32,000 nt of DNA from an uncultured Erysipelotrichaceae bacterium (GTDB taxonomy: Bacteria > Bacillota_I > Bacilli_A > Erysipelotrichales > Erysipelotrichaceae). The stretch is from the NCBI GenBank assembly GCA_942493105.1, contig OW818668.1, positions 330,001 to 362,000 on the forward strand. The letters are read 5' to 3'. The translations under genes and the position numbers were made by a program. Below, one piece after another: positions 537-25,485 of the stretch (the first letter of the stretch is position 1; each line of letters begins with the position of its first letter). The notes under the pieces are model-generated. The model saw only the letters and a program-made list of their open reading frames with translations, did no database searches and was not told the DNA's origin.

Positions 537-1536
537 TTATGTAATCAACTGAAATTGATGAATCACTGCTGGTAATAATCGTTTCTGATGAGTTGGATTG
601 GTTATATAATCGTCATATTCGTGAGGGGTCATCCGATTAAGATCCCATTGAGGTCGATCATAATTATAATAGTTGATGTATGAAATAAGGTACTCAGCCA
701 ATCGTTCATAAGAATTGATTTTAGATAATTCGAGTTCGGTTTTAAGCACGGCGTAGAAGGATTCTTGTGGGGCATTATCCCAACAGTTTCCTCGCCTAGA
801 CATCGATTGAGTAATGTCATGCTTAGAGAGAAGATCCTGATAGGCGATACTGGTGTAATGACTTCCTTGATCAGAGTGAAGGATGACTCCCATATGAAGT
901 TCCCCACAGTAATTCTCCAGAAGCTGATTCACTGTATTGATCACGAAATCCAACTCAAGGGTCGATGAGAGCTGCCAGGCTAAGATCTTCTTAGTCATGG
1001 CGTCTTTGATGGTGGATACGTAAGCTCGCTTCCCATTGCCGTAGGTGATATAAGTGATGTCGGTCAATAAGGTCTTCTTGGCACTGCCTTGCGAGAAGTT
1101 TCGATCTAAGATGTTACTGAAGACTTTGTTGCTGTCTTTGGGCTCTAAGTATCGCTTTGACTGGGTTTGCTTTTCGAATTGGACAGATTAGTTCGTACTT
1201 ACTCATCAGCCGATGGATCCTTTTGAGGTTCATAATGACCTGATAATCCCTCTCAAGCCTCATTTTGATCTGTTTGGCCCCTTTTTTGAACCCTTCATAA
1301 TCATAAGCTGCTTTGATTGCGATAAAGTCGAGTTGATCCTTCATTTCTCTTTCACCCATCGTTAGTCTTCGTTTCTTATAAGCGTAGTACCCAGATCGAG
1401 ATACGCTCGCTTGGGTACACATATATTTTATGTCCAGTCGATTCTTTCTTCGACCTTCCATTTCCCATATGATATTGAATCGCTTTTCTGCGCTGAGTTT
1501 TTTTACTCCCCCCTTTCCAGCGCTTTCAGCTTTTTT
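537..1536 (-). pseudogene. IS3 transposase OrfB (integrase core), disrupted by an extra frameshift near 1150-1175
   Basis: Track ORFs 1114..1461 and 537..1067 are two pieces of one OrfB. The first frame reads ...IRKANPVKAILRAQRQQQSLQ*. The other frame over the same DNA reads RYLEPKDSNKVFSNILDRNFSQGSAKKTLLTDITYITYG, continuous with 537..1067. The frame offset implies a 1-nt insertion or a 2-nt deletion. Confidence 0.8.
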
Positions 1537-1901
1537 AAGAATTCATTCTCCTGTTCAAGGTACTCATTTCTGTCTTTTAGATATCGGTTCTCTTCCTCAG
1601 GGCTGTTAAATATTAGTTTCTTAGGTCGTCCTGGTGATTTGAGTCGCTTAAATCCTTCAGGTCGCTTTGCTTGTTTCCTTGCCCTCGCAAATATTGAGTT
1701 GAGTCGGTTTTTCCCAAAGAATTCTGAATCTATTCCTAAATCACTTAAGATTCGCTTTTGCGTTTTTCCTAGTCGACTTTCCCTTTCGATAATTGTTTTG
1801 AACTCTGATGTAAACTGAACCGAACTTTCAGATACTTTTACGACATATTTGTTTCTTCTTAACCTCTCAATTGTCTCCGCACTGAATTTAACTTTTCCCA
1901 T
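1503..1901 (-). CDS. IS3-family transposase OrfA (HTH, leucine-zipper-like C-terminus)
   Basis: 132-aa ORF. C-terminus NEYLEQENEFLKKLKALE is typical of IS3 OrfA. The orfB frame stays open in the -1 frame across its 3' end. Confidence 0.85.
   Translation of the reverse strand: MGKVKFSAETIERLRRNKYVVKVSESSVQFTSEFKTIIERESRLGKTQKRILSDLGIDSEFFGKNRLNSIFARARKQAKRPEGFKRLKSPGRPKKLIFNSPEEENRYLKDRNEYLEQENEFLKKLKALERGE
1530..1536 (-). promoter_or_regulatory. Programmed -1 ribosomal frameshift heptamer A_AAA_AAG (orfA to orfAB)
   Basis: The minus strand reads TTA AAA AAG in the orfA frame (..EFLKK..). The -1 frame is open from here through KKAESAGKGGVKKLSAEKRFNIIWEMEGRR into orfB. Confidence 0.75.
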
Positions 1902-6612: not shown

Positions 6613-7655
6613 GATGTTCTGTTGAGTTGATCGATTTGTGCGATCAACTTTTTATAATGGGTTCCCATTAAGTTTAAGTTTTCGATGATCCTATTATAAG
6701 ATTGGTTATAAAGCGACGAATCAATCAACTCTATCTCTTTGATCTTTGTGTTCTTTAGATCCGTAAAATCCAATTCTTTAAGACCTTGTATCACGGTCTC
6801 TAGGACCACAAGAAGATTTTGATTAGGTTGGATATCGGTATTTTCTTTGATGTAGATACTGTCATAGGCCAAATGAATCATGGTCTTGATCTGAATGATC
6901 ATGTCAGTATATATGCCAAGATTTCTTTTTTCAGTGCTGTTGAAGGGAATATGACGCTCCTGACGCATGGTATCAAGATTAACTTTAACCATTTCTATGT
7001 CGCTAAAAACAGCAGCTAAAACTGGTTGATAACTGTTATCATTCATCTTATCTTGCTTCAAAACAGACAATGTTTTCTCTAGACCTATGACTCCTTGAAT
7101 CTTAACAAATTCTAAACGACGTTTTCCTAATTTACGATAATAGAGTATTGAGAATAAGAAGTTCATCAATAAAGCAACCGCAACCCCTAATCCTAAAGCT
7201 ATGATCCTTAATCTGAAGGTCAATAAAATACTTGGATTTCCTAATCCATCATTTTGAATCAACTGTGTCATGTAAATGCTGGTAAAGATAGCCACTGGTG
7301 AAACCATACGATAATCGATTTTAAGGGCAATGTAGATTGTAAATCCAATACCTAAGGCAATGGTCAAGAAGCTAATGTTATAACCCATGAGCACAACCAA
7401 AAGCCCTGTCGTTAGGGCTCCTAATGTTGAGGCTAAAAGTTGATTGATCCCACCTTTGATTCCCGAAACATTGATGGCCTCAAGATTATACATGACCCCT
7501 AATAAGACAGAAATCATATCTAAGCGTGTAATCGAAAAAGCCTGTCCCAATAAATAACCCACAGAGATCGCAACCATAGCTTTAATAATATATAGTCTTG
7601 AATCTAATAATATGGCTTCTCTTTTTAGTCCAAAAATGAGCTGAACTTGTCTCAT
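6609..7655 (-). CDS. FUSC / aromatic-acid-exporter-like membrane protein (YgaE/UPF0421-like)
   Basis: 348 aa. N-terminal half has about 5 TM segments with a Gly-rich pattern resembling FUSC_2; C-terminal half is soluble and helical. AAGGAG RBS. Confidence 0.5.
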   Translation of the reverse strand: MRQVQLIFGLKREAILLDSRLYIIKAMVAISVGYLLGQAFSITRLDMISVLLGVMYNLEAINVSGIKGGINQLLASTLGALTTGLLVVLMGYNISFLTIALGIGFTIYIALKIDYRMVSPVAIFTSIYMTQLIQNDGLGNPSILLTFRLRIIALGLGVAVALLMNFLFSILYYRKLGKRRLEFVKIQGVIGLEKTLSVLKQDKMNDNSYQPVLAAVFSDIEMVKVNLDTMRQERHIPFNSTEKRNLGIYTDMIIQIKTMIHLAYDSIYIKENTDIQPNQNLLVVLETVIQGLKELDFTDLKNTKIKEIELIDSSLYNQSYNRIIENLNLMGTHYKKLIAQIDQLNRTS

Positions 7656-14170: not shown

Positions 14171-15244
14171 TTACATTAAAATACTAAGCAAGAATTTAAC
14201 ATAAAGTGGGAAGAGAATAATAACCAAAACCAATCTAAAAACTTGAATAACGGCAATCTTTGGGGCATCACTGTTTATTTCAGAAGCAATCAAAGCCATA
14301 TCCGAAGCTCCCCCAGGTGAAGAAGCAAACATAGCACTGATAAAGTCGATTTCACTGAATCTTGAGATCAAGTAACTGATTACAAATGAAGCAATGATAT
14401 AGCCAACCAATACGAATATAATAGGAACAAGAATCCCGCTCATTTCAGCTAAGTCACCACGATTGATCCCTGAGCCGATTAATGAACCTGCTGCCACTTG
14501 AGCGATTTGTCTAAAGGTGATGGGTAAATCAATCAAATCTGTTTTAACATTCAAGAAAGTAACGACTATAAGCGAAACCGACAGTGCTCCAGCCGGAAGT
14601 CCCGTTAAATAACCTAAGTAACCAGCAATCAAACCAATCACTAAGGTTGATAAGATCCTAATTTTTTTGTTGTCTTGGATCTTGACTTTATTGATCTTAA
14701 AGGTAGATTCTTTTTGAATCTTAGCAGGAATGACTCTTCCTACTTTTAACTTCGCATTTTTGGATAGTGTTTTGATCATAATAGGAAAAGTAGACAAGAC
14801 AAAGATCAATCGACTGGACTGCATAACAGAAACAATCGAAGGATTAGCATTTAGATCATAACTGATCAAAGACATATCCACAACACCACCAGGTACAGCC
14901 ACTAAAAAAGCTGTGGGATAATCGAAACCAAACAAATGATGCAAAGTCAAACCCATGATGGTTGTGAATATCAAAAAGGATCCAATTAGGATGACAATAG
15001 GAACAAACAGTTTCTTAAACCCCAATAAGTCTGAATCTTTGATGCCTTTTGCGATATAGGTCCCTGTTATAGCCTGGGTAATGATCTTGATTTCATTTGG
15101 CATGTATAAGAAATCTGTCCCAACATTGACAATAGCAACCAAAAACATAGGTCCCAACATATAAGGAATTGGAAATTTCAATTTTTTAGCTATTAAGGCA
15201 CCAACAATAGCCACTGCGAAAGTAGCCAAAATATTTTGAATCAT
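14171..15244 (-). CDS. AbrB-duplication family membrane protein (putative ammonia-monooxygenase-like, PF05145-type)
   Basis: 357 aa. Two internally similar hydrophobic halves. N-terminus ...GALIAKKLKFPIPYMLGPM is typical of the family. Strong AAAGGAGGGG RBS. Confidence 0.65.
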   Translation of the reverse strand: MIQNILATFAVAIVGALIAKKLKFPIPYMLGPMFLVAIVNVGTDFLYMPNEIKIITQAITGTYIAKGIKDSDLLGFKKLFVPIVILIGSFLIFTTIMGLTLHHLFGFDYPTAFLVAVPGGVVDMSLISYDLNANPSIVSVMQSSRLIFVLSTFPIMIKTLSKNAKLKVGRVIPAKIQKESTFKINKVKIQDNKKIRILSTLVIGLIAGYLGYLTGLPAGALSVSLIVVTFLNVKTDLIDLPITFRQIAQVAAGSLIGSGINRGDLAEMSGILVPIIFVLVGYIIASFVISYLISRFSEIDFISAMFASSPGGASDMALIASEINSDAPKIAVIQVFRLVLVIILFPLYVKFLLSILM

Positions 15245-15406: not shown

Positions 15407-15425
15407 AAAAAAGCCCTTAAGGCTT
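15407..15425 (-). terminator. Weak hairpin terminator at the end of the redox/permease operon
   Basis: The minus strand reads AAGCC-ttaag-GGCTT followed by TTTT. The stem is only 5 bp. Confidence 0.4.
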
Positions 15426-15429
15426 AGTG

Positions 15430-15774
15430 TCAACGATGAATAATGAATCTGTATTTATGCTTCTTTTGATAAATTCGATAAACGATGTATCCTAAGCAAA
15501 ACCCTAGGCTAATGATCATAATGATCCAATTCTTAGTGAGAAGACTATTGATCGCCAAGGCACCGAAATGAAAGAACATGATGATCAATAAATCAGAGTT
15601 TAGTTTGAGTCGTCGCTTGGGATAGATATACAAGATATACATTCCAATTCCGATAAATTCTAAATCTACGAGCAATTTCCAAAAGTCTTTGTCCATGATG
15701 TTTGAAAACGCTGAATAAAGGAGAAACAAGATTCCAATCCATAAGATTATTCTAGGTAGTTTCTGACGATTCAT
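15430..15774 (-). CDS. Small membrane protein (114 aa), unknown function
   Basis: Four hydrophobic segments. The start lies 2 nt after the upstream permease stop, suggesting translational coupling. Confidence 0.5.
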   Translation of the reverse strand: MNRQKLPRIILWIGILFLLYSAFSNIMDKDFWKLLVDLEFIGIGMYILYIYPKRRLKLNSDLLIIMFFHFGALAINSLLTKNWIIMIISLGFCLGYIVYRIYQKKHKYRFIIHR

Positions 15775-15776
15775 TT

Positions 15777-16316
15777 CTATTTTTCGATTTTCAAAGCACG
15801 TGTATGTATTTCTTCAAGACCTTTGTGACCTAATACTTTTTCACTGATTAAAGCAATGCCCATGATCCCAACTATATTTAAGACAAATCGTGTCACCGTA
15901 AAAGGTAATCCCATCGATGCAGCTTCAAACATCAAAAGAGGAATCTTTGTAGTAGACCATGCACCAATCATAATCAATACATTTCTAAAAGAACTTCCTT
16001 TTTTAAGCAACATCAATGCTACAGGAAATCCTGCATAGAGCGGACCAGCTGCTGCTGAACCCAAGAGGAAAGCCAATAAGATTCCTTTAATTCCACTATC
16101 CTTACCCATTAAGTTGACCATGGTTTCGCGTTTGACCCATACATCCAACAAGCCTAAAAGAATAAATATTGGAGGTAAAACCATTGCCATTTCAGATAAG
16201 CTATTTATCGTTTTTGTAGAACTTGCATCAAACAAATCTTTATTGACAAAGAATAGGACCACATAAACAACGATCAAGATTAGAAATAAACGATATCTTT
16301 TTAGAGTTGTTTTCAT
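15777..16316 (-). CDS. Half-size permease, subunit 2 (PF03773/ArsP-like predicted-permease family)
   Basis: 179 aa. LLGSAAAGPLYAGFPVALMLLKKG is homologous to LGSITLIPGFIAFPLAAALIKSG of the upstream gene. ATGA start/stop overlap at 16313-16316. Confidence 0.6.
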   Translation of the reverse strand: MKTTLKRYRLFLILIVVYVVLFFVNKDLFDASSTKTINSLSEMAMVLPPIFILLGLLDVWVKRETMVNLMGKDSGIKGILLAFLLGSAAAGPLYAGFPVALMLLKKGSSFRNVLIMIGAWSTTKIPLLMFEAASMGLPFTVTRFVLNIVGIMGIALISEKVLGHKGLEEIHTRALKIEK

Positions 16317-16789
16317 TTTAGAATGACCCCCATGATTAAGGCAACAAAAAGAGAAAATAGAAATGCCAATCCATTTCTAAGATAAGCTGCCTTCTTCCCA
16401 AAGAATTTGATTTCCATCGGAAGAGTAACGATGCCTACCATCATTAAGGTCGAAATGAAGGCTGCGATCTGCATATAACCTGCTCCGCTTTTAATCAAAG
16501 CAGCTGCTAAAGGAAATGCTATAAATCCTGGTATTAAGGTAATTGAACCTAAAATCGATGCCAATAAGACGCCAACCCATCCAGAATCTCCTCCAATGAG
16601 TGAAGAGATTTGAGCAGGAGTCAAAATACTTAACACGAAACCAATCAATAATAGAATCGAAAGAAATTGAGGTAAGATATTCTCAAAAGACTTCCAAGCT
16701 TTTTTTAAAGCTTGGATCGTTTTTTCTTTAGACTTAAACCAAGAAAATCCTAATGCAATTGCAGCAATTACGTATACAGCATTATCCAT
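16313..16789 (-). CDS. Half-size permease, subunit 1 (PF03773/ArsP-like predicted-permease family)
   Basis: Start set at ATG 16789 (MDNAVYVIAAIALG...). It overlaps the last codons of the upstream regulator (..CACCATGGATAA). The track's longer start would read through the His-rich tail in another frame. Confidence 0.6.
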   Translation of the reverse strand: MDNAVYVIAAIALGFSWFKSKEKTIQALKKAWKSFENILPQFLSILLLIGFVLSILTPAQISSLIGGDSGWVGVLLASILGSITLIPGFIAFPLAAALIKSGAGYMQIAAFISTLMMVGIVTLPMEIKFFGKKAAYLRNGLAFLFSLFVALIMGVILK

Positions 16790-17510
16790 GGTGATGTCCT
16801 TCGTGGTTGTGTTTGTGTTCATGATTATGATCGCCACAACCAGCACATTCTTGTGCTGTCAAAGAAGTTGTTAAAGTCTTATTGAGATAAGCATCTAATG
16901 CTTCATCAGCTGTTTTATCTTGAGCATCAATACATTGCATGTTAAGTGCAACCAAACGATTATATGCACCTTTTCCCATAGATTTCATGATCAAAACATC
17001 AACACCTTTGTCTTTTAAGAACTGGGGACGTTCTTGATGGACATGCACATCATCATGAATGTCCTCTGTATTCACAACAACATTATTTTCGATTTCTACG
17101 ATTCTGAAATCATTACAATGACCAAAATGCTCAGCTACGTTTTGCCCGTTAAGGCCTATGGCGATTTTCAACTTGTTTTCTCCTGTTTCATGGTTTATTG
17201 AACGTGTGTTTAAAGGTGATTGTTCTACAAAATTGACAGGTCCGCCTTCTATTTCAAGAACTTTTCCCAAAACCAATGCTTGTGCGATCTTGACTCGAGC
17301 ACTGGCATAAATACGTTGTACCGTCGTACGACTGATATTCATGACCGTTGCACAATTTTCTTGACTGAGTCTTTCGAAATCACATTTACGAATGACTTCA
17401 AATTCATCCAGTGATAAAATGATTGAACCGTGTTCACCTGTCTTTTCAGGACTAAATTTACAACAAACCGGTTCTTCCATAATACTTCTAGATTTGAAAG
17501 GTCTTGGCAT
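16782..17510 (-). CDS. DUF134 (UPF0251 HTH) :: NifB/NifX-like cofactor-binding domain fusion with a Cys/His-rich tail; putative regulator
   Basis: N-terminus MPRPFKSR...FSP...LSLDEFEVIR...MNISRTTVQRIYASARVKIAQALVLGK matches DUF134. The middle, KIAIGLNG..VAEHFGHC..F.IVE....DVLIMKSMGKGAYNRL, matches the dinitrogenase FeMo-cofactor-binding fold (NifX/NifB-C). The tail is ECAGCGDHNHEHKHNHEGHHHG. Confidence 0.7.
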   Translation of the reverse strand: MPRPFKSRSIMEEPVCCKFSPEKTGEHGSIILSLDEFEVIRKCDFERLSQENCATVMNISRTTVQRIYASARVKIAQALVLGKVLEIEGGPVNFVEQSPLNTRSINHETGENKLKIAIGLNGQNVAEHFGHCNDFRIVEIENNVVVNTEDIHDDVHVHQERPQFLKDKGVDVLIMKSMGKGAYNRLVALNMQCIDAQDKTADEALDAYLNKTLTTSLTAQECAGCGDHNHEHKHNHEGHHHG

Positions 17511-17520
17511 AGAACTCCTT

Positions 17521-17538
17521 TATGAACATATGTTCATA
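17521..17538. promoter_or_regulatory. Perfect 18-bp palindrome TATGAACATATGTTCATA (operator; core equals the Cheo/LexA box GAAC-N4-GTTC)
   Basis: Seen directly. Starts 3 nt downstream of the -10 element and abuts the AAGGAG RBS of the DUF134-NifX gene. Confidence 0.6.
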
Positions 17539-17541
17539 ACT

Positions 17542-17569
17542 AGTATACATCTCTTTTAAATTAATGCAA
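17542..17569 (-). promoter_or_regulatory. Internal sigma-A-type promoter for the DUF134-NifX/permease genes
   Basis: The minus strand reads TTGCAT (17569-17564), 16-nt spacer, TATACT (17547-17542). Confidence 0.5.
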
Positions 17570-17583
17570 GAAAAAAGAATTGG

Positions 17584-17907
17584 TTATTTAACCAATCCAA
17601 ATTTCCATGATCCAACGCCACCAATATTGTGGACATCTGTATAGCCTGATTTCTTTAGGAAGTCTGTAGCATCACCTGCTCTGGCTCCACTTAAACAGAT
17701 CACAAATATTTTTTGATCTTTATTAGGCAGCATGCCTTGGACTTTTTGAGGCAAGGTATTCAATGGCACATTGACACTGCCTTTGACATGCCCTTCTCTA
17801 AACTCTTCCTTTGTACGCACATCAATCAATTTGATGGTTTTATCTGCCTGAAGCAATTCATAAGCTTTTTCCTGACTAAGATGATTTGATTTGAAGAAAT
17901 TGAACAT
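17584..17907 (-). CDS. Single-domain rhodanese (sulfurtransferase-type)
   Basis: 107 aa. Active-site loop VICLSGARAG (C-X4-R) in a typical rhodanese fold pattern (LIDVRT..EF..GH..G..N.P). Confidence 0.85.
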   Translation of the reverse strand: MFNFFKSNHLSQEKAYELLQADKTIKLIDVRTKEEFREGHVKGSVNVPLNTLPQKVQGMLPNKDQKIFVICLSGARAGDATDFLKKSGYTDVHNIGGVGSWKFGLVK

Positions 17908-17925
17908 GTTGCCCTCGCTTTGTGT

Positions 17926-17936
17926 TGTTCATAACT
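17926..17936. promoter_or_regulatory. Half-site TGTTCATAACT, identical to 17531-17541, upstream of the rhodanese gene
   Basis: An 11-nt exact repeat of one arm plus flank of the 17521-17538 palindrome. The second arm is not conserved. Confidence 0.35.
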
Positions 17937-17943
17937 GCTAACC

Positions 17944-18237
17944 CTATAAACCATTCGACTTTATGAAATCTAATGATCTTTCAACTTTATGTAAGTCGAT
18001 GAATCTGCTCTCACGCAAGATCTCTTTACCTTCCGCAAACACCAATATGGTTGGTACTGTGAAGACACGATGTTGGCCTGAAGTCCATTGATCTTTCGTA
18101 ATGTCGATTTCAATTAAAGGAATGGTATACTCTTTTAAAACTTCTTTTAGTTGAGGTTCTATCGAATGACATACCCCACACTTTTCACTCACGAAACTCA
18201 TCACATAGGATGAGACATCGTGTTGTTTGTTTGTCAA
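17944..18237 (-). CDS. Thioredoxin-fold protein (CGVC active site)
   Basis: 97 aa. VSEKCGVCHS CxxC motif and cis-Pro context FTVPTILVF. Probable TTG start 9 nt after GGAGG. Confidence 0.75.
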   Translation of the reverse strand: MTNKQHDVSSYVMSFVSEKCGVCHSIEPQLKEVLKEYTIPLIEIDITKDQWTSGQHRVFTVPTILVFAEGKEILRESRFIDLHKVERSLDFIKSNGL

Positions 18238-18291
18238 ACGTCATTACCTCCTTTTAGTAACCTGATCAGTATTAACACGATCGAGGAATAC

Positions 18292-18936
18292 CTATAGTGA
18301 TTCAATACTTGATAAGAAGGTTTCGATTGGCTGATTGCCTACCAATTCAATCGTATCATTGATGATGATCTTTGGTACTCCAGAAACATTGTATTTCTCT
18401 GATAGTTCATAGAAAGTTTGAGCTTCAATCATTTCTCCCTCTACATTTTTATTCAGCATGGCCAACAAGTGAGCTTTTTGAACAGCTCCAGGGCAATGCG
18501 GGCAGCTCATGGTCACAAAGACCTTGATGTTGACAGGTTTATCGATCTTCGCAATTCTCGCTGCCAAATCAGCAGGAACGTCACTGATCTCAGAAGACAT
18601 TTCTACCAAAGCAGACAAGAATGAATTGAATTCATGGCCTGCTGGGATCCCATTGAACTTCACCCCTTTATACTGATCATCTTTATCCAATATGATAAAG
18701 CTAGGTGCCATTTCAATGTTGTACTTTTTGGCTTCTTCAACATCTTTGTCTAAATCAAAGTTTAAAACATTTATTTTTTCATTTAGTGCTGCAACTTCAC
18801 TGATAATTTGCTTGGTTGGTTCACAAGATTCACAATCAGTAGCCTTAGTGAATAAAACGATCGTGATCTTGTCTTTCATCGGTTGTAGTAATTCTGTGAC
18901 TTGTTTCTGTAAGTCTTTATTGAGTAGTTTTTCCAT
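18292..18936 (-). CDS. Glutaredoxin-like protein-disulfide oxidoreductase (PDO / AhpF N-terminal-like, two thioredoxin folds)
   Basis: 214 aa with two CxxC motifs (CESC near residue 35, CPHC near residue 145). SGVPKIIIN cis-Pro motif. AAGGAGA RBS. Confidence 0.8.
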   Translation of the reverse strand: MEKLLNKDLQKQVTELLQPMKDKITIVLFTKATDCESCEPTKQIISEVAALNEKINVLNFDLDKDVEEAKKYNIEMAPSFIILDKDDQYKGVKFNGIPAGHEFNSFLSALVEMSSEISDVPADLAARIAKIDKPVNIKVFVTMSCPHCPGAVQKAHLLAMLNKNVEGEMIEAQTFYELSEKYNVSGVPKIIINDTIELVGNQPIETFLSSIESL

Positions 18937-18949
18937 TGTTTGTTTCTCC

Positions 18950-19925
18950 TTAATGGGTATTTAAATATTCATTGGCAGCCAATGCTGCTTTTGCGCCTTC
19001 TGCAGCCGCAATGATGATTTGTTTGTATGGGCTTTGGATCATATCACCTGAAGCATATAATCCCGCACAACTGGTCTTCCCTAGTTCATCCGTGATCACT
19101 TCATTGCGTTCATTGAGATCAACTAAATGTTTGATTAACGATGTGTTTGGAATATTTCCGATTTCGATAAATAAGCCATCACCATCTATTCTTCTTTCGC
19201 TTTGAGTTACTTTATCAAGAACTCTTACACCGCTTAATGCATCTTCTCCAACGATCTCTAGGATCTGAGTTTCAAGATGAACCTTTATTCTTGGATTAGA
19301 CAACATCCTATCGATCAAGACTTGATCAGCTCGCAGCTGACTTCGATGAATCAAAGTAACGCTTTGTGCGACCATAGCCACATCGATGGGCTGCTTCAAC
19401 TGCTGAATTACCACCACCGGCAATCAAGACATCTTTTCCTTTATACAAAGGGGCATCACATATGGCACAATAGGCCACACCTCGATTTGAGTATTCGATT
19501 TCACCTTTGACATTGAGTTTCCTAGGAGTTGAACCCAAGGTTGCAATCAATGTTTTGGATCGATAACTTGTTTTATCGCTCAACATGACTTCAAAGACAT
19601 CTTCTTTCTTATCGATCGATACAACTTCAGCATCCTCTAAGATTGGGACATTTAATTCACTCACGTGACTTCTAAACTTTTCAGCCATCTCTTCACCACT
19701 GATTGAACTTAAACCAAGATAATTTTCAACCAATGAGGTATTCAATAATTGACCGCCTGTTTTTTTTGCGATCATCGCGACCTTACGACCTTTACGAGCT
19801 CCATATAATGCAGCGTTGTATCCTGAAGGTCCACCACCAATGATTAAGATCTCATAGAGTTCACCAGGCTTAGGTTTTATGTTTTGTTTGACTTCTTTAA
19901 GATTAAATCCAAAGTTTAAATCCAT
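18950..19925 (-). pseudogene. trxB: Low-MW thioredoxin-reductase-like flavoprotein, interrupted by a 1-nt frameshift at about 19388-19390
   Basis: Track ORFs 19326..19961 and 18950..19423 are consecutive parts of one gene: IIGGGPSG (FAD), CAICDAPLY (redox CxxC), AGGGNSAVEAA (NAD(P)H), then the frame changes at GCAGCCCATCGAT, continuing IDVAMVAQSVTLIHRS...GLYASGDM. Deleting one C of the CCC run restores the frame. The start at ATG 19925 is preceded by CAGGAGG. Confidence 0.8.
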
Positions 19926-19946
19926 AAGTTCCTCCTGACAACACAC

Positions 19947-19975
19947 ATTATACGGGGACACTTCTTGAATTTCAA
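19947..19975 (-). promoter_or_regulatory. Strong sigma-A-type promoter of the redox operon
   Basis: The minus strand reads TTGAAA (19975-19970), 17-nt spacer, TATAAT (19952-19947). The palindrome CTTGAAtTTCAAG (19964-19976) overlaps the -35. Confidence 0.7.
19954..19970 (-). repeat. 17-nt repeat ATTCAAGAAGTGTCCCC (inverted copy A), filling the promoter spacer
   Basis: 16/17 identical to the plus-strand sequence at 20697-20713, in inverted orientation. Confidence 0.7.
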
Positions 19976-19987
19976 GTGTAATACTAC

Positions 19988-20656
19988 TTATTTGTTTAAA
20001 ATTTTAGATACAGATGATTCACTGATCGAGAATAATTCACCTAATGTCTTTAGTGAACAATTCGTCGTTCTTCTAAACTCCAGGATGCATTGATTTCTCA
20101 TATCTTTGTTTTTCTTCATCATTGTAGGATCACAGCCCTTCTGTTTCATCCAAGATTCAAGTTTTTGGCGTGCTTCATCCAGGTTTATCGAAGATTCTAT
20201 TGAACCAATTTTAATGTTGTGGGGATCTAGATTAATGGTGAAATGATCTGGACGTTTGGCTTCTAGACAGTGAAAACAATAACTGTTGAATTGGCTGTTG
20301 GTTTGTTTTTGTATGCTTTTGATTTCTTGCTGAAGCTGTGTCTCATCGTGTAAAGGCAAACTACTAAACCGTCCAGAAAATAGACGCCCTTCATAACTTC
20401 GATAAGCACTATAAGCTGTAAGCAGAGAAGACATAATGGCTGATATGCTTCTTCCCTTTGTATCAATGATCATTTTAAAAAGATGGTCATCTAAAAGACA
20501 ATAGGCATAACACTCATATCCAAACTTACTTTGGACTTGTTTCATGATCGTAAGCATAGCATTGCGATCATGATCATCTCTATATAAGATTTCTTTTGAT
20601 TTCTGTGTGACAGACAATAAGGTACTGATGTCTGAGTTTCTTGCTTTTCTGGCCAT
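19988..20656 (-). CDS. RayT/IS200-like (Y1 HUH transposase fold) protein with degenerate catalytic motifs and a C-terminal DnaA-domain-IV-like HTH; putative regulator
   Basis: ECYAYCLLDDHLFKMII (the HUH position reads H-L-F). YEGRLFSGRF corresponds to the family's G-H-L-W/F-Q-G-R-F. C-terminus RNQCILEFRRTTNCSLKTLGELFSISESSVSKIL is an HTH. Start set at ATG 20656 after AGAGGA; the track start 20689 lacks an RBS. Confidence 0.6.
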   Translation of the reverse strand: MARKARNSDISTLLSVTQKSKEILYRDDHDRNAMLTIMKQVQSKFGYECYAYCLLDDHLFKMIIDTKGRSISAIMSSLLTAYSAYRSYEGRLFSGRFSSLPLHDETQLQQEIKSIQKQTNSQFNSYCFHCLEAKRPDHFTINLDPHNIKIGSIESSINLDEARQKLESWMKQKGCDPTMMKKNKDMRNQCILEFRRTTNCSLKTLGELFSISESSVSKILNK

Positions 20657-20696: not shown

Positions 20697-20713
20697 ATTC
20701 AAGAAATGTCCCC
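20697..20713 (+). repeat. 17-nt repeat ATTCAAGAAATGTCCCC (inverted copy B)
   Basis: 16/17 match to the reverse complement of 19954-19970. Lies in the divergent intergenic region between the RayT-like gene and the ECF sigma gene. Confidence 0.7.
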
Positions 20714-20827: not shown

Positions 20828-21340
20828 ATGAGATACACCGAAGAAGATTTCGAAACCATCTATCGCGCTACTGTAAATCAAGTAAGTAAGCATGTGTTCT
20901 TTAAAGTCCAAAATCTGCAGGATGCTCAAGATCTCGTTCAAGACCTTTATTTTGACTTATACAAGCATATGCAAAGCTGCACTGAGAAAATCGATCATCC
21001 TCAGTCCTACATCATGTCTATGGCTAATCACGCCTTAACAAGCTACTATCAAGCCAAATTACGTCGACCCGTTACTTTAATCGATGATGAGATCGATCTT
21101 TTTGAATCTCTGCCAGACTCTTATGAACTCGAAACAGAAGTTTTAGACAAGATCACTGCTGAAGAACTTTGGGCTGAAATCAATAAACTTCCTGACTTAG
21201 ATCGAAATTTACTGGTTGCCCGATTTAGATTTGAAATGAACTATAGTGAAATAGCAGCCCAAGTTCATCTTCCTGAAACCACAATTAAGAGTAAAGTTTA
21301 TAAAGCTTTGGAAGATCTAAAATATAAGTTTATAAAATAG
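20828..21340 (+). CDS. ECF-type RNA polymerase sigma-70 family factor
   Basis: 170 aa. Region 2 (DAQDLVQDLYFDLYKH) and region 4 HTH (LLVARFRFEMNYSEIAAQVHLPETTIKSKVYKALEDLK). Confidence 0.85.
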   Translation: MRYTEEDFETIYRATVNQVSKHVFFKVQNLQDAQDLVQDLYFDLYKHMQSCTEKIDHPQSYIMSMANHALTSYYQAKLRRPVTLIDDEIDLFESLPDSYELETEVLDKITAEELWAEINKLPDLDRNLLVARFRFEMNYSEIAAQVHLPETTIKSKVYKALEDLKYKFIK

Positions 21341-21393
21341 TTTCGTCTATTCTAATCATGCCTGGCTCTATAGAAGTGAAAGGACTTAAACCC

Positions 21394-22437
21394 ATGAACC
21401 AATTCAAAAAGAATCTAAAAAAGAATGCATTTGATGAAGAAGCGATGTTGTCTAATATTCTTCAACGTGCTTCAGATAACGGGTTAAGATCCAAGTGGGC
21501 AAAAGCCCCTAAGGAATCAACCATGCTTAAAAGAGGTCTCATCTTCGTCAGTATGACCTTTGTATTAGTCTTCGCTCTGTTTATATTTAATCCTCTTGGA
21601 ATTTTCGGTAAAGATCAATCTAAGGTCGTCGCAGCCATTGTATCTGTCGACATCAACCCAAGTTTCGAATTATCTGTGAACAACGGAGGTTTGGTCATCA
21701 AGATTGAAGCCTTGAATACTGATGCTGAATCTTTGGATACCAATGATCTATTAGGAGAACCTGTTGAGGAAGTTGTCGATGCCATCGTAAGCTTAGCAAC
21801 AGCAGCTGGATTTATCGACATTGATGATCTTGAAGATGATTATGTTTTGGTTAGTACAGTGCTCAATAAAGGTACTGCAGCCAAAGTCGGTGACCTGATT
21901 CAACAACGCATCAGAGATCGCATTCATTTAAGCGATAAACTTCAAAATGTCAACCTTGTTCAAATCAAAGCGACTTTGCAGGAACAAATGCAAGCCAGAG
22001 ATAAAGATGTTCCAATTGGTCTCTATGTCATCAATGGAATGATCCAAACTCAAAATGGCGAATATATTAGTGTCAAAGATTTCTTCTCAAATCCTCAATA
22101 TCGCCTAACCATAAAAAACAGGGCTCAATTCAATGAAATCCCTGAAGCTAAAATTCGTGAAAGAATCAACGCTGCTCTATCTGAATTAGATGAAGCTGGT
22201 GTTGATACGACCCAACTCAGAACTCGTCTTGAGAATGCCAATAAAGAATCCATGATTCAAATTCAAAGTGAAGTCAGAAAACAAATCAATAAAAAAGATG
22301 GCCCAGGCAATGATGATGCACCAGGTCCTCAACAAGGAACTGATAATGGTAATGAAACTCAATCAAACTCAGACTCTGGTTCTCAATCCAGCGGAACAAA
22401 TACTGGATCTGGTGGTAACGGATCAGGCGGTCAATAA
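21394..22437 (+). CDS. Putative anti-sigma factor: single TM, RsgI-like extracytoplasmic domain, low-complexity tail
   Basis: Position immediately after the sigma gene. TM segment LIFVSMTFVLVFALFIF. The post-TM VSVDINPSFELSVNNGGLVIKIEALNTDA resembles the segment after the TM in RsgI-type anti-sigma factors. The tail is rich in G/S/N/Q. Start set at ATG 21394 after AAAGGA. Confidence 0.5.
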   Translation: MNQFKKNLKKNAFDEEAMLSNILQRASDNGLRSKWAKAPKESTMLKRGLIFVSMTFVLVFALFIFNPLGIFGKDQSKVVAAIVSVDINPSFELSVNNGGLVIKIEALNTDAESLDTNDLLGEPVEEVVDAIVSLATAAGFIDIDDLEDDYVLVSTVLNKGTAAKVGDLIQQRIRDRIHLSDKLQNVNLVQIKATLQEQMQARDKDVPIGLYVINGMIQTQNGEYISVKDFFSNPQYRLTIKNRAQFNEIPEAKIRERINAALSELDEAGVDTTQLRTRLENANKESMIQIQSEVRKQINKKDGPGNDDAPGPQQGTDNGNETQSNSDSGSQSSGTNTGSGGNGSGGQ

Positions 22438-22490: not shown

Positions 22491-22880
22491 TCAGGTCTGA
22501 AGTGTCTTCTGACAATCCTGACAGATTCCTTCAATTTCTAAACGATGACGAATGATTTTATAGCCTTCTATACGATCACTTAAGTGAATGGGACATTCTT
22601 TAAGGATCTTGGTTTGATTGCAGATGACACATTTGATCAAATGATGGGCATGTTCAGATTTTAACACATAGTGCTTTTCTTTGGGTTGAAATTCATCGCT
22701 GATTTCAATCAATTCATTGACTAAAAATGAATCAATGACACGGTAAAGTGTTGCGATGGGAATATCGGGATGTAACTTATACAAATCAGAAACACTGACT
22801 GGGTGATCTAATGTTTTAAAGCTTTCCAGAATTGATATTCGAGCTGAAGTTTTCTTCAGCTGTTTTGGCCAATGATTCAT
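22491..22880 (-). CDS. zur: Fur-family metalloregulator, Zur-like
   Basis: 129 aa. Winged-helix N-terminus, HAHHLIKCVICNQ and CQDC metal-site motifs. Last gene of the znu operon, with an ATGA overlap to znuB. Confidence 0.8.
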   Translation of the reverse strand: MNHWPKQLKKTSARISILESFKTLDHPVSVSDLYKLHPDIPIATLYRVIDSFLVNELIEISDEFQPKEKHYVLKSEHAHHLIKCVICNQTKILKECPIHLSDRIEGYKIIRHRLEIEGICQDCQKTLQT

Positions 22881-23680
22881 ACTCTTCCCTTTCTTAGCGG
22901 TAATAATATCAGATAGGTCGTAACTGCCAACAAGACCACAGCACCACCTGGCTTAACACCTGCATAAAAAGATATAAATAAACCACCAATCATAAAGAAC
23001 AAAGAGAATAAGAAGGCAATGACCAGTGTCGATTTATAGCTTTTCGACAATTGCATGGCCGTTGCGACAGGTAAGATCATTAAAGACGAAAGAATCAAAC
23101 TACCTACTGTTTTAGCCGCAATACTTAATGTAATGCCCAACATGATCATAAAGATCACATTGACCAATTTCACATTGACCCCAGAATGCTGAGCCATGGT
23201 CTCATCAAAAGTCATCGCAAAGATTTCTTTATAGAATATAAAATAAACAATCACCACAATAACCACAACGCCTGTAATCATAATGACTTCAGTCTCACTG
23301 ATGGCCACTATAGACCCAAATAAGAACGCAGAGAAGCGATTGGTATCCCTAACAAATGAAGACAAGGTTCCTGCTAAACCAATCCCCAAAGACATTAAAA
23401 TCGCTATGGCCACATCAGCATAATTTGGTAATCTTCGTCTTAACACATCGATCAAGAACACCCCAATCAATGCAGCCAACATGGCACTGATCAAAGGATC
23501 AATGTTTAGAATAAGTCCAATGGCGACTCCAGCTAAAGTGGTATGAGCTATCGCATCTCCTACCATAGACATACGTTTCAACACAATGGTTTGTCCAATG
23601 AGCGGAGACATCACAGCGACCAAAGCACCAACCCACAAAGCTCGATTCATAAACTCATAGTTAAATATGCTCATGAACAC
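22877..23680 (-). CDS. znuB: Metal (Zn/Mn) ABC transporter permease
   Basis: 267 aa, about 8 TM segments. ABC-3 family pattern (MSMVGDAIAHTTLAGVA). Confidence 0.85.
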   Translation of the reverse strand: MFMSIFNYEFMNRALWVGALVAVMSPLIGQTIVLKRMSMVGDAIAHTTLAGVAIGLILNIDPLISAMLAALIGVFLIDVLRRRLPNYADVAIAILMSLGIGLAGTLSSFVRDTNRFSAFLFGSIVAISETEVIMITGVVVIVVIVYFIFYKEIFAMTFDETMAQHSGVNVKLVNVIFMIMLGITLSIAAKTVGSLILSSLMILPVATAMQLSKSYKSTLVIAFLFSLFFMIGGLFISFYAGVKPGGAVVLLAVTTYLILLPLRKGRV

Positions 23681-24392
23681 CTCCCATATGCGTATGACGA
23701 TGAGCCAGTTCTTCTTCGATTTGAGGCTCGTCTAAAAGTAAGATATCACTTTCACCTAAACAAAAGATACGATCAGAAACTGTCTTAGCCAAAGCCAAAT
23801 CATGCGTGATCATAATGATGGCCATGCCTTCTGCTTGGTAACGCTTTAAGATCGAGAATAGTTTTAATGTAAACTGAGCATCTAAGGCACTGCTGGGTTC
23901 ATCAAGAAACAAAAGCTTGGGCTTCATCAATAAAGCTTTTGCGATAAAAACACGTTGCCTTTGACCACCAGACAAAGCTGATAATTGGGTATGGATTTCT
24001 TGACCTAAACCCATTTCTTCAAGGATCACTTTAGCAGCCAACACATGTTTCTTTTGAGGACGTTTAAATAAACCCAGAAGCGGTGTAAAGGCTCCCATCA
24101 CGACTTCAAGTGCAGTTGCAGGGAATGCTTCATGCTGACTAAACTCGTGCTGACCGACGTATATGCGTTCATAGGGTTTTAAAGGCAAACCTGACTCAGG
24201 ATCAAATAAAGATACTTGTCCTTGTTGAGCTTTGATCAATTGAGCCAGAACTTTTAAAAGCGTTGTTTTTCCTGTCCCATTGTTACCAATGATCCCAATC
24301 CATTCATGCTTACTGACACTTAACGAGAAATCTTTAAAAAGAATTTTCCCTGGATAAGCATATGAAATTTTATCAGCAATCAGTATGTTCAT
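23661..24392 (-). CDS. znuC: Metal ABC transporter ATP-binding protein
   Basis: Walker A GNNGTGKTT, signature LSGGQRQR, Walker B LLFLDEP. His-rich C-terminus HRHTHMGGVHEH. Confidence 0.9.
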   Translation of the reverse strand: MNILIADKISYAYPGKILFKDFSLSVSKHEWIGIIGNNGTGKTTLLKVLAQLIKAQQGQVSLFDPESGLPLKPYERIYVGQHEFSQHEAFPATALEVVMGAFTPLLGLFKRPQKKHVLAAKVILEEMGLGQEIHTQLSALSGGQRQRVFIAKALLMKPKLLFLDEPSSALDAQFTLKLFSILKRYQAEGMAIIMITHDLALAKTVSDRIFCLGESDILLLDEPQIEEELAHRHTHMGGVHEHI

Positions 24393-24393
24393 G

Positions 24394-25278
24394 TTAGTTC
24401 AGCGCTTTCTTGAGCCATTGTAAATTCTGTCTCATGATCGATAAGAAATCATCTCCAGCTGCAATCTGCTGATCATTTAGAGATTCACCAGGTCTCAATA
24501 CACCTGTCAAAGCACCTGTTTCAGCAGCAATCGTATTCGCAACTTGCGTATTCGCATCATCTTCATAGAGTATATAAGGAATCTTGTATTGTTTAACGAT
24601 GTCTATGATTTGTGCCATGACAGATGCATCAGGTTCAGCATCTGGTTCTATTCCCATAATGGGAATCATAGTGAGACCATAATCTTGGGCTAAGTAACCA
24701 AAAGCCGCATGATTGACTACAAATTCATCCCTGACTCTGTTTTTTATAGTATCTTCAAATTCTTGATCAAGGGCTTCGAATTCAGCCTTAGCATCTAAAT
24801 AATTGGCTTCATATTCAGCTTTGTGATTTGGATCGATTCGAACAAGATAATTTCTGATCGTATTAAGTATCAACACATCATTTTTTAAACTAGTCCAAAT
24901 ATGCGGATCAATTTGATTTGTAGATTCATTAATGATGGTTGAGATACCTTGTGATACCACAAGGACTTCTTGGCCCTTATGATAGATCGTCTTTGAAACA
25001 TCATCAAACCAAGGTTCAAAATGATTCCCTAAAATAAAAATGTGATCAGCTTTACTTAAGGTCACCATATCTTTGGTTGATGGTTCGTAATCATGTGGTT
25101 CACCAGCAATAGGCAATAAATTTGTAATGCTCACATAGTCACCACCTATACGTTGAGTCAAATATTCCAATACATAAAAACTAACAACGATCTTTATTTT
25201 TTGATCATTTTCATTATTTTTTGGTGTACATGCACTTAAGGAACTGACAAGTAAGATTAGTATAAGGAGTTTTTTCAT
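24394..25278 (-). CDS. znuA: Metal ABC transporter substrate-binding lipoprotein (cluster A-I, ZnuA/AdcA-like)
   Basis: Start at ATG 25278 gives the lipoprotein signal MKKLLILILLVSSLSAC. GEPHDYEPS and DPHIW metal-ligand motifs. Confidence 0.85.
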   Translation of the reverse strand: MKKLLILILLVSSLSACTPKNNENDQKIKIVVSFYVLEYLTQRIGGDYVSITNLLPIAGEPHDYEPSTKDMVTLSKADHIFILGNHFEPWFDDVSKTIYHKGQEVLVVSQGISTIINESTNQIDPHIWTSLKNDVLILNTIRNYLVRIDPNHKAEYEANYLDAKAEFEALDQEFEDTIKNRVRDEFVVNHAAFGYLAQDYGLTMIPIMGIEPDAEPDASVMAQIIDIVKQYKIPYILYEDDANTQVANTIAAETGALTGVLRPGESLNDQQIAAGDDFLSIMRQNLQWLKKALN

Positions 25279-25288
25279 CGCAACCTCT

Positions 25289-25309
25289 AAATGATATTGA
25301 TTATCATTT
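25289..25309. promoter_or_regulatory. Zur/Fur-type box: 21-bp palindrome AAATGATA-N5-TATCATTT
   Basis: 8-bp perfect arms. Starts 2 nt downstream of the -10 and covers the expected transcription start of znuA. Confidence 0.7.
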
Positions 25310-25311
25310 GC

Positions 25312-25340
25312 ATTATAAACCGCGGAACAAAATACATCAA
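25312..25340 (-). promoter_or_regulatory. Sigma-A-type promoter of the znuACB-zur operon
   Basis: The minus strand reads TTGATG (25340-25335), 17-nt spacer, TATAAT (25317-25312). Confidence 0.6.
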
Positions 25341-25485
25341 GTGTAATACCTACTGTCAACTTAAAATGAATTGATAGGTTAAGATTGATTAATGACGTAT
25401 TTATGTCTTGTAACCTTCTGTTAAAATGGGTTCTAATCTTACACAGATATATCTACATATGTTGCCCACAAAGAGTACAATAAAC

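Follow-up and report, generated by a model that had tools for sequence, protein, structure and literature searches.

The 32,000-nt window analysed here, positions 330,001 to 362,000 of contig OW818668.1 from an uncultured Erysipelotrichaceae bacterium (assembly GCA_942493105.1), carries eight minus-strand genes between positions 19975 and 15411. Four belong to a thiol-redox module, comprising a thioredoxin reductase-like flavoprotein (TrxR), a protein disulfide oxidoreductase (PDO), a small thioredoxin-like protein (Trx) and a rhodanese, and four to a module comprising a DUF134-NifX fusion protein, two half-size permeases (PermA and PermB) and a small membrane protein. An earlier note on this DNA had described nine genes behind a single strong promoter. 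The co-directional minus-strand open reading frames (ORFs) do lie where it had placed them, but the nine ORFs correspond to eight genes, because the reductase is split into two ORFs, and a second promoter with a different operator separates the rhodanese from the fusion gene. Thus, the set most likely represents two transcription units with different conserved operators, rather than one operon. The features are as follows, from the 5' end of the cluster, with coordinates counted from the first letter of the window:

19947 to 19975, minus strand: promoter of the redox module, a 29-bp block (TTGAAATTCAAGAAGTGTCCCCGTATAAT) conserved in relatives, with the hexamers TTGAAA-17-TATAAT
18950 to 19925, minus strand: TrxR/AhpF-C-like flavoprotein, in ORFs 19326-19961 and 18950-19423, with a CAIC redox site
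18292 to 18936, minus strand: PDO with two thioredoxin folds (CESC, CPHC), like the N-terminal part of AhpF
17944 to 18237, minus strand: small thioredoxin/glutaredoxin-like protein (CGVC), assigned by profile search
17584 to 17907, minus strand: single-domain rhodanese (Pfam Rhodanese PF00581, E = 1.9e-19) with the loop C-L-S-G-A-R
17577 to 17598, minus strand: terminator-like hairpin of 9 bp followed by U6, overlapping the rhodanese stop codon (-9.2 kcal/mol, z = -3.6)
17542 to 17569, minus strand: promoter of the fusion-permease unit, TTGCAT-16-TATACT, with position and hexamers kept in 10 aligned loci
17522 to 17537, no strand assigned: perfect 16-bp palindrome ATGAACATATGTTCAT, with the core TGAACA-NN-TGTTCA, predicted from its conservation to be a DUF134 operator
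16782 to 17510, minus strand: fusion of DUF134 (DNA-binding) and a NifX-like domain, with vicinal Cys16-Cys17, a C-terminal ECAGCG (CxxC) and a His-rich tail
16313 to 16789, minus strand: PermA, a half-size ArsP_1-like permease of 158 aa, whose first 8 nt are shared with the end of the fusion gene
15777 to 16316, minus strand: PermB, a half-size ArsP_1-like permease of 179 aa with no Cys, whose start overlaps the PermA stop by 4 nt
15430 to 15774, minus strand: membrane protein of 114 aa, no family assigned
15411 to 15425, minus strand: terminator-like hairpin at the end of the fusion-permease unit, whose signal is modest (a longer nested fold gives -10.1 kcal/mol, z = -2.15)

The boundary between the two units is found in the 73-nt gap that precedes the fusion gene and holds, in this order, the second promoter, four bases, the palindrome and a ribosome-binding site. 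In 10 loci aligned on the palindrome, the -35 and -10 hexamers, the palindrome and the ribosome-binding site occur at constant spacing, and the palindrome is 99% identical across the aligned loci versus 51-56% for its flanks and 55-83% for the fusion proteins. The palindrome is conserved in 11 of 11 related Erysipelotrichaceae loci, fully in all but L006 (15 of 16 positions), and is present as a single copy in each of them as well as in the window, which was the part of the source genome covered by the operator search. It was never found upstream of TrxR, PDO, Trx or rhodanese in the window or the related loci. A hairpin with a T-run before the fusion promoter was also recognised by eye in relatives, with folds computed for L004 and L001 only. 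Overall, the promoter scan returned 19 sites versus 21.1 expected in shuffled sequence, i.e., no excess; the two promoters are credited because they are conserved in relatives and not because of the scan.

The redox promoter, already pointed out in the earlier note and indeed present at 19975-19947, matches 11 of 12 hexamer positions, and the spacer between its -35 and -10 is filled by a 17-bp motif (19954-19970). The block, or a version very close to it, stands before TrxR in the window, L084, L085, L008 and L091, PDO in L004 and L005, two loci without TrxR, and Trx in L006 and L007. As far as can be read from the sequence, the redox and permease genes are transcribed independently and under unrelated regulation, a situation that the earlier note had named as incompatible with its proposal.

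The 17-bp motif has a second copy, on the other side of a neighbouring gene:

19988 to 20656, minus strand: Y1-transposase-derived protein of 222 aa with a C-terminal end resembling a helix-turn-helix; ORF extendable to 20689
20697 to 20713, plus strand: 17-bp motif in inverted form, ATTCAAGAAATGTCCCC, close upstream of the Y1-like gene

Read on the strand of the Y1-like gene, the inverted copy is GGGGACATTTCTTGAAT and provides a TTGAAT -35 hexamer. These two copies are the only ones in the window, and no others were found in the other loci scanned for it. The inverted motif pair flanks the Y1-like gene in L004, L005, L008, L084, L085, L090 and L091; in L090, where the Y1-like protein is only 33% identical, both copies have diverged to GGGAC-N4-CTTGAAT. 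In each examined locus with the Y1-like gene (the window and the same seven loci), this gene lies directly upstream of TrxR or PDO. The 8.4-kb contig L090 carries the Y1-like/TrxR/PDO trio followed by an unrelated gene on the opposite strand, and no fusion or permease was called there. The Y1-like protein belongs to a narrow family of 35 proteins and gave a weak Y1_Tnp match (E = 0.0016; 19 bits for PF01797, cut-off 23) and 22.3 bits for REP_Tyr_transpos (cut-off 80); its HUH motif is degenerate (DDHLF), and it falls outside the IS200/RAYT Y1 transposases. From this arrangement we infer a domesticated transposase that regulates the redox unit, with ATTCAAGAAGTGTCCCC as the proposed target of this candidate regulator. 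Two other explanations of the motif were discarded. A REP element flanking an active RAYT is at odds with two copies per locus, none dispersed, with the degenerate HUH motif, and with the solo copy that L006 and L007 have precisely within the spacer of the Trx promoter. A SigI/ECF-type promoter serving the neighbouring sigma factor (see below) was dropped after inspection by eye, guided by promoter types known from general background, revealed no suitably spaced -10 of that type and no promoter motif matching this factor.

Gene order was compared by tblastn in 83 loci, to which a closer relative was added later; the ORFs of these loci were called crudely (longest ORF), and the loci are partly redundant, many of them being metagenome bins. 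A core formed by the fusion, PermA and PermB, with PermA directly after the fusion, is common without exception to the window and the nine closer Erysipelotrichaceae loci. L003 and L009, which are more distant, have no PermA after the fusion but a NifX-like gene, a Fer4_5 membrane protein and the 114-aa protein. The redox genes (TrxR, PDO, Trx and rhodanese) vary among the closer relatives, which carry upstream of the fusion:

L084 and L085: TrxR, PDO and rhodanese; no small Trx
L004 and L005: PDO, Trx and rhodanese; no TrxR
L008: TrxR and PDO only
L006: Trx and rhodanese, ca. 3.5 kb away
L007: Trx, rhodanese and a coenzyme A disulfide reductase (CoADR)-rhodanese, ca. 3.5 kb away
L002: the C-terminal, rhodanese-like part of a protein truncated at the contig start, probably a CoADR-rhodanese, ca. 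3.5 kb away
L001: none of the redox genes

In L007, the Trx, rhodanese and CoADR-rhodanese genes stand behind the redox promoter block that is common to the window. In these variable loci, TrxR plus PDO on the one hand and CoADR-rhodanese on the other are thus alternative partners of a Trx-rhodanese pair, behind one promoter block. The neighbourhood check proposed in the earlier note thus had a divided outcome: DUF134-type regulators accompanied by rhodanese or thioredoxin genes and by permeases recur well beyond the source genome, but the redox genes themselves are variable in close relatives.

The association extends to the 74 more distant loci, mostly Clostridia, whose fusions are ca. 35% identical and whose commonest neighbour is a rhodanese. 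In Lachnospiraceae and other Clostridia, a recurring order is fusion, CRP, Trx, rhodanese, CoADR-rhodanese, rhodanese and rubrerythrin. Across the 83 loci, distance from the fusion served as an internal control: a limit of 4 kb takes in 42 of 46 ORFs with a rhodanese domain and 21 of 24 for thioredoxins, and rhodanese ORFs thin out from 0.85 per 10 kb at 0-2 kb to at most 0.05 beyond 6 kb. The link between the fusion and rhodanese or Trx is real, though not universal. Just downstream of the fusion (up to three genes, same strand), the usual matches are ArsP_1 halves, CRP, thioredoxin, rhodanese, TauE (after the fusion in three Blautia/Ruminococcus loci) and rubrerythrin; Bcp-YaaA, a TrxR, MntP, ZIP and MATE are found as well. 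Among the latter, the peroxide-stress genes Bcp plus YaaA directly follow the fusion in L064, L069 and L077 (in L064 and L069 after an ORF of 70-79 aa), as do MntP, for manganese efflux, in L050 and a ZIP transporter in L052. The Bcp/YaaA, MntP and ZIP neighbours hint at a fusion family spanning oxidative-stress and metal regulons.

Profile searches bore out all the family assignments of the earlier note; its view of the DUF134-NifX protein as a metal- or cofactor-sensing regulator and of the half-permeases as heteromeric is supported as well, and the motifs that it had listed (CAICD, CESC, CPHC, CGVC and C-L-S-G-A-R) are all readable in the translations. DUF134, also designated UPF0251 or COG1342, is widespread in anaerobic bacteria and archaea; a literature search on its function returned passing mentions only. 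The fusion belongs to both of its constituent families, with 76.9 bits for DUF134 (PF02001, cut-off 27) and 70.2 bits for Nitro_FeMo-Co (PF02579, cut-off 26.3). No HTH_5 match was obtained for the fusion by profile search, which places it outside the ArsR winged-helix family. The recognition-helix motif SRTTVQR is invariant among aligned fusions, and the conserved HFG motif is present in the NifX-like domain; the His run is variable, one subfamily ending with a bare CxxC. The AF2 model of the fusion (pLDDT 76.8) consists of three N-terminal helices and a beta hairpin, a disordered linker, the NifX-like domain and a disordered tail. The C-terminal domain of this model (residues ca. 113-210) has a NifX/NafY/ORP fold according to Foldseek (probability 1.00; TM 0.67-0.86, normalised to target), the matches being 2yx6, 1o13, 1p90 (NafY), 2wfb (ORP) and 9ian_F (NifX) or, by name, PH0822, TM1816, NafY, orange protein and NifX. 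Overall, the fusion is predicted to be a ligand-responsive autorepressor. Look-ups of the exact fusion and PermB sequences returned no record.

Outside the close relatives, a related palindrome, G[AG]CATATG[CT]C (cGACATATGTCg or TTGACATATGCC), is found at the promoters of the distant fusions themselves, where 46 of its 78 matches in 1.1 Mb are located. Further copies were found upstream of Trx in L076 and L080, the Trx of L076 being followed by TrxR, and in the CRP-side intergenic region. A search of metagenome contigs for the exact 16-mer of the window returned at least 120 loci (L092-L211). Among the matches listed, a DUF134 gene starts within 220 nt of the 16-mer in 41 of 120 and the 16-mer precedes 12 ArsR/SmtB genes; the Pfam tally for the scanned downstream genes is 30 DUF134, 17 NifX-like, 13 DUF5320, 12 ArsR-type HTH_5 and 9 ArsP_1, both the DUF134 and the ArsR/SmtB kinds being often followed by ArsP_1 permeases. 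In the same set, the 16-mer occurs before stand-alone DUF134 genes in contigs of 31-66% GC. These stand-alone proteins have CxPGERCF and C-terminal GGCC motifs and are followed by full-length ArsP_1 with a CSC motif, after which come an ArsM-like methyltransferase in L103 and a small ArsE-like thioredoxin in L181 and L201, these two partners being named by eye. In L141, one contig holds DUF134, rhodanese and TauE behind the palindrome. On the ArsR side, the 16-mer stands before CadC-like proteins followed by ArsP_1 or a P-type ATPase. In general, ArsR/SmtB operators of the 12-2-12 type have TGAACA-NN-TGTTCA as their core. An SmtB/ArsR-type 12-2-12 repeat that contains it has been described (PMC8790569). 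By its sequence and its place near the promoter of its own gene, ATGAACATATGTTCAT is an ArsR/SmtB-type operator, which denotes a shared way of working and not family membership. Since DUF134 and ArsR genes are found behind one 16-mer, it appears that DNA-binding proteins of two families unrelated to each other share an operator type located before the same transporter family. A separate observation concerns L206 (4225-11648), in which the palindrome precedes DUF134 and a distinct NifX-like gene, and then genes for a thioesterase and a YeiH-like (PF03601) membrane protein, with five rhodanese-like tblastn matches and a Trx-like match a few kb off on the same contig.

The two half-permeases are PF03773-like, as the earlier note had proposed, but its length of about 175 aa does not hold for PermA, which most likely starts at 16789 rather than at the GTG at 16846 and so has 158 aa, the length called in L001 and L084. 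PermB exceeds the PF03773 (TC 2.A.119) cut-off of 32.3 bits with 37.5 bits, PermA stays below it with 20.7 bits, and the two proteins, which belong to this family, are 31% identical to each other (E = 3e-9). Each matches the first half of the ArsP_1 profile, so neither has the 4+4 repeat on a single polypeptide. The ArsP family is laid out as a 4+4 helix repeat (PMC7176098), which the half-size members fit. The PermB family falls into 745 clusters at 50% identity; among the best 150 of these 745, almost all are half-size. A CSC/USC motif has been described in ArsP/SO_0444/SaoE transporters (bioRxiv 10.1101/2022.07.06.499078). At this position, full-length relatives read PFCSCS, AVCSCT or L-U-SC versus GSAAAGPLY in PermB and GSITLIPGF in PermA; neither half-permease has a Cys there, let alone vicinal ones, and a conserved His or Met is also missing at the position. 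Polar residues conserved in the half-permeases are D58, E64, K106, E131 and R143. The missing Cys argues against an organoarsenical or another thiolate-bound substrate, leaving a hard cation or anion as likely, and the organoarsenical option of the earlier note was abandoned together with an organoarsenical ArsP function. The SAO system was likewise rejected (SaoE 16 bits, cut-off 325; SaoT 16 bits, cut-off 65; no ABC or MerB-like partners in the unit). No solved structural relative of PermB was found by sequence search, and its model is poor (pLDDT 66.6, pTM 0.43). No Rfam match was obtained in the window or in L087-L089, so there is no catalogued riboswitch before the permeases.

Several observations on related permease loci can be added. 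A distant half-permease pair (160 and 180 aa) lies in L087 (1666-2690) and L088 (5519-6543) without a DUF134 gene, behind an intergenic region of ca. 500 nt that has no Rfam match. In L136 (3893-3919, minus strand), an ArsR-linked ArsP_1 has an in-frame TGA exactly at the CSC position and reads GIPIPL*SCGVLP where L164 has GIPIPLCSCGVVP, which fits the USC selenoprotein form of the SO_0444 family; L139 has the same two-ORF layout and is likely also TGA-interrupted. The 114-aa protein has homologues (34-48% identity) downstream in the fusion units of L003, L004, L005 and L009, and L084 has a 114-aa gene at the matching position, a correspondence of position and length only. A RseC_MucC match of this protein (19 bits, cut-off 24.4) was set aside as transmembrane-helix noise. 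In relatives, a Fer4_5 (4Fe-4S binding) membrane protein of ca. 195 aa is inserted between PermB and the 114-aa gene; absent from the window, it is found in L084 (197 aa, 6750-7343) as well as in L003, L004, L005 and L009, and it lies directly upstream of the fusion in L057, L063, L065, L073 and L080 (Clostridia: Blautia, Ruminococcus and relatives).

On its own, the thiol-redox half is an ordinary variant of known TrxR/PDO/rhodanese systems. Pyr_redox_2 matches both reductase ORFs, in which GGGPSG, GGGNSA and CAIC are present, and the two halves score 179 and 134 bits on TIGR03140 and 165 and 125 bits on TIGR01292. The protein thus has the FAD and NAD(P)H folds and the CxxC of a low-Mr thioredoxin reductase or AhpF C-terminal flavoprotein, in a frame that is interrupted. 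The frameshift reported in the earlier note corresponds to one extra C, with CCC at 19388-19390 (GCAGCCCAT) versus CC in L084, L091 and L008 (GCAGCCAT). Without the extra C, a 324-aa reductase is restored, the length of the orthologues in L084, L085 and L091; intact orthologues of 324-325 aa occur in L084, L085, L090 and L091, and in L008 neither the ORF call nor the frameshift site shows an interruption. The extra C could have arisen by a recent mutation or be a homopolymer error of the assembly. The PDO, with two thioredoxin folds each containing a CxxC, scores 247.8 bits on TIGR02187 (cut-off 185) and has 1j08, 1a8l and 1hyu as relatives in the PDB; the gene order TrxR then PDO reproduces the domain order of TIGR03143, an AhpF homologue. 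No peroxiredoxin partner for TrxR/PDO is encoded in the window. Orthologues of the small Trx are present in L004, L005, L006, L007 and L091 and absent from L084 and L008. The rhodanese has a single domain with its catalytic Cys in a six-residue CX4R loop, and its best PDB match is 6mxv, a "rhodanese-like family protein". Its nearest NCBIfam models are PspE/GlpE-type sulfurtransferases, all below their cut-offs (PspE 60 vs. 102, GlpE 39 vs. 102), and it is therefore an orthologue of neither.

The surroundings of the cluster include, at 20828-22437 (plus strand), a divergent pair encoding a sigma factor and an RsgI-like anti-sigma factor, which is syntenic with the cluster in L001, L004, L005, L084 and L085 and lies near the fusion in L003 and L009. 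Genes for a Fur-family (Zur-like) regulator and a ZnuB-, ZnuC- and ZnuA-like ABC transporter follow at 22491-25359 (minus strand), ca. 2.5 kb from the cluster, and Fur-family and Dps genes are found directly upstream of the fusion in L003 and L009. On the other side, a 357-aa AbrB-family (PF05145) membrane protein (14171-15244, minus strand) lies between the cluster and an aldose-epimerase gene; it is missing at this place in L084, which is otherwise collinear. Remnants of an IS3-type element, with HTH_Tnp_2, HTH_21 and rve integrase-core ORFs in separate frames, occupy positions 537-1901 (minus strand).

The reading that we favour, with somewhat less than even confidence, is that of two neighbouring and separately controlled stress-response units, a persulfide/disulfide reductase module (unit A) and an autorepressed exporter (unit B). 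Unit A (19975 to 17577) would be expressed from a sigma-70 promoter whose spacer is the conserved 17-bp site, and would consist of a split AhpF-type reductase (TrxR-like plus PDO), the small Trx-like protein and the rhodanese. Electrons would pass from NAD(P)H to FAD, the CAIC disulfide, the CxxC of PDO and Trx and finally the rhodanese Cys persulfide or other disulfides, with release of H2S and restoration of thiols; this would be the job of the CoADR-rhodanese fusions of related loci, with which unit A may be functionally interchangeable. In unit B, a DUF134 domain dimer would bind the palindrome and repress its own operon, as the conservation of this site suggests. A ligand acting at the NifX-like domain and/or at Cys16-Cys17, the tail CxxC and the His run would relieve repression and turn on a heterodimeric, Cys-free ArsP_1-type exporter of 4+4 helices, together with the small membrane protein, in an ArsR/SmtB-style sensor-exporter logic built on a different DNA-binding family. 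Operator binding, ligand, direction of transport and enzyme activities are all predicted here from sequence. The units are repeatedly neighbours, in different forms, which suggests a shared stress; they would be adjacent because both answer thiol-reactive stress, and not as parts of one pathway. As to the exported species, a sulfur anion of sulfane-sulfur stress (sulfite, thiosulfate or polysulfide), to which the rhodanese, CoADR-rhodanese and TauE contexts point, is a tentative candidate, and something else altogether is just as conceivable. A divalent metal ion, indicated by the operator type, the His-rich tail, the MntP/ZIP contexts, zinc data from Shewanella and the Zur/ZnuABC neighbours, is only slightly less likely.

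Several points weigh against this reading. The frameshifted reductase may render unit A non-functional in the source genome. The operator of the fusion is absent from the redox promoter, and hence no shared regulator joins the units; in L001, there is no rhodanese or Trx gene near the fusion. When fusions were grouped at 70% identity, a rhodanese lay within 4 kb in 7 of 29 lineages and a Trx in 9 of 29. ArsR-family proteins use the palindrome too, and a distant ArsR could be the real binder; DUF134 and ArsR have no detectable homology by hhalign profile comparison (probability 5%). The poor PermB model means that there is no structural clue to the substrate. Finally, other fusions are followed by MntP, ZIP or MATE transporters, and this context, like the His-rich tail and the adjacent Zur/ZnuABC genes, favours a metal.

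The last of these points is taken furthest by supposing that unit B serves metal-ion homeostasis, with Zn, Mn, Fe, Ni, Co or a metal cofactor being sensed and a metal exported by the permease, and that the redox genes are mere neighbours in a stress island. In favour of this are the palindrome, which is the one of metal-sensing ArsR/SmtB repressors, the conserved acidic D58, E64 and E131 of the half-permeases, the His-rich tail of the fusion, MntP (L050) or ZIP (L052) directly after other fusions, the Zur- and ZnuABC-like genes at 22491-25359, and Fur and Dps directly upstream of the fusion in L003 and L009. Within the permease family, ArsP/DUF318-family genes beside ZntR give zinc resistance in Shewanella (bioRxiv 10.1101/072470), and the SO_0444 family was described as involved in Cu/Zn efflux (bioRxiv 10.1101/2022.07.06.499078). 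However, at the place of the CSC of metal-exporting relatives, the half-permeases contain neither Cys nor a conserved His or Met; the His run is variable and is replaced by a bare CxxC in one subfamily; genes for rhodanese and Trx cluster strongly near the fusion; and in other DUF134 units the position downstream is taken by TauE and rhodanese. On this balance, we consider metal homeostasis unlikely.

The model of the earlier note, in which one operon encodes a relay and a rhodanese that reduce a sulfur or metalloid species (persulfide, thiosulfate, selenium, tellurium or an organoarsenical) and a split permease that transports the product, is very unlikely. The genes are indeed co-directional and tightly packed, their order is near-identical in the close relatives L084 and L085, and the AT-rich hairpin that follows the rhodanese may be leaky; elsewhere, a stand-alone DUF134 precedes a CSC-type ArsP_1 and an ArsM-like methyltransferase (L103), and L141 combines DUF134, rhodanese and TauE in one unit. 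Against this, a second promoter and a different operator lie between genes 4 and 5, close relatives have lost or swapped the redox genes while keeping the permease unit, and the Y1-like/TrxR/PDO trio stands alone in L090. The permeases also lack the vicinal cysteines required by the ArsP mechanism, and the reductase is frameshifted in the window. With redox and permease modules that are separately controlled and separable, one integrated pathway finds no support. Meaningless adjacency, i.e., unrelated gene sets joined by rearrangement in one Erysipelotrichaceae lineage, would agree with the separate regulation, with the modules found apart (L001, L090) and with the transposase-derived gene at the junction, but it is very unlikely in view of the rhodanese module that 9 of 10 places (the window and the nine closer loci) have at most 4 kb from the fusion and in two non-orthologous forms, the independent association in other Clostridia and on a metagenome contig, the family operator upstream of Trx in L076 and L080, and the internal distance control, which points to real linkage.

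The favoured reading of two stress-response units leads to a testable prediction, namely that DUF134 proteins are autorepressors that bind ATGAACATATGTTCAT and control ArsP-family, TauE and other exporters along with thiol/sulfur stress genes. Its broadest form is rather doubtful: DUF134 would be a widespread autoregulatory sensor-repressor family doing the job of ArsR/SmtB through TGAACA-NN-TGTTCA without detectable homology to it, with branches controlling metalloid exporters (ArsP_1 accompanied by ArsM-like or ArsE-like proteins), rhodanese-TauE units and NifX/DUF5320 clusters, and its NifX-fused branch would report reactive-sulfur or metal stress through a metal-sulfur cofactor or a Cys/His site, switching on a Cys-free heterodimeric ArsP-type exporter beside a rhodanese-based persulfide reductase. 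If the prediction on DUF134 autorepressors is right, a whole family of "hypothetical DNA-binding proteins" would acquire a role, and its regulon motif could be used in annotating the genomes of anaerobes. The combination of a helix-turn-helix domain with a NifX-like cofactor domain would be a new sensor scaffold for metals or reactive sulfur, and the half-size Cys-free ArsP_1 pairs (the 745 clusters above) a distinct transporter subfamily.

The earlier note had known of no characterised equivalent of the combined system, and our literature search also found none. Unit B resembles the operons that couple ArsR/SmtB to an efflux permease (ArsR or CadC with ArsP_1, an SO_0444-type permease or a P-type ATPase), in which the gene of an autoregulated repressor also comes first and the exporter next. 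The operator core TGAACA-NN-TGTTCA is identical, and the exporter also belongs to PF03773. In contrast to these systems, DUF134 replaces the winged helix, the sensor has a NifX-like domain and a Cys/His tail, and the permease is encoded by two half-size genes with no CSC. The C-terminal domain of the fusion shares its predicted fold and the HFG motif with the NifX/NafY/ORP/MTH1175 family, but it is fused here to a DNA-binding domain, with no nitrogenase or ORP-complex genes nearby.

TauE, which fills the exporter slot in other DUF134 units, is part of the cst operon of S. aureus. For unit A, the closest characterised analogue is the cst-like operon of E. faecalis (CstR, RhdA, RhdB and CoA persulfide reductase), in which rhodaneses accompany a persulfide-clearing reductase dependent on NAD(P)H (PMC9405070). 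The combination of rhodanese and NAD(P)H-dependent reductase is common to both, and a true CoADR-rhodanese stands behind the same promoter block in the related locus L007. Neither a CsoR-family CstR nor a CoA persulfide reductase is encoded in the window, which sets unit A apart from cst-like operons proper; CoADR-rhodanese occurs in L007 and L026. Unlike the cst-like operon, the window has TrxR plus PDO instead of the CoA persulfide reductase and an ArsP_1-type heterodimer as exporter, and the regulator of its redox genes is probably the Y1-transposase-derived protein. Unit A also recalls the TrxR plus PDO systems (TIGR03143, the Pyrococcus PDO 1a8l and the Thermotoga TrxR/Grx-like pair cited in the earlier note), in which a CxxC flavoprotein is likewise followed by a protein of two thioredoxin folds with two CxxC sites. 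Unlike in those systems, TrxR and PDO are coupled here to a small Trx and a rhodanese, with no peroxiredoxin and a flavoprotein that is frameshifted.

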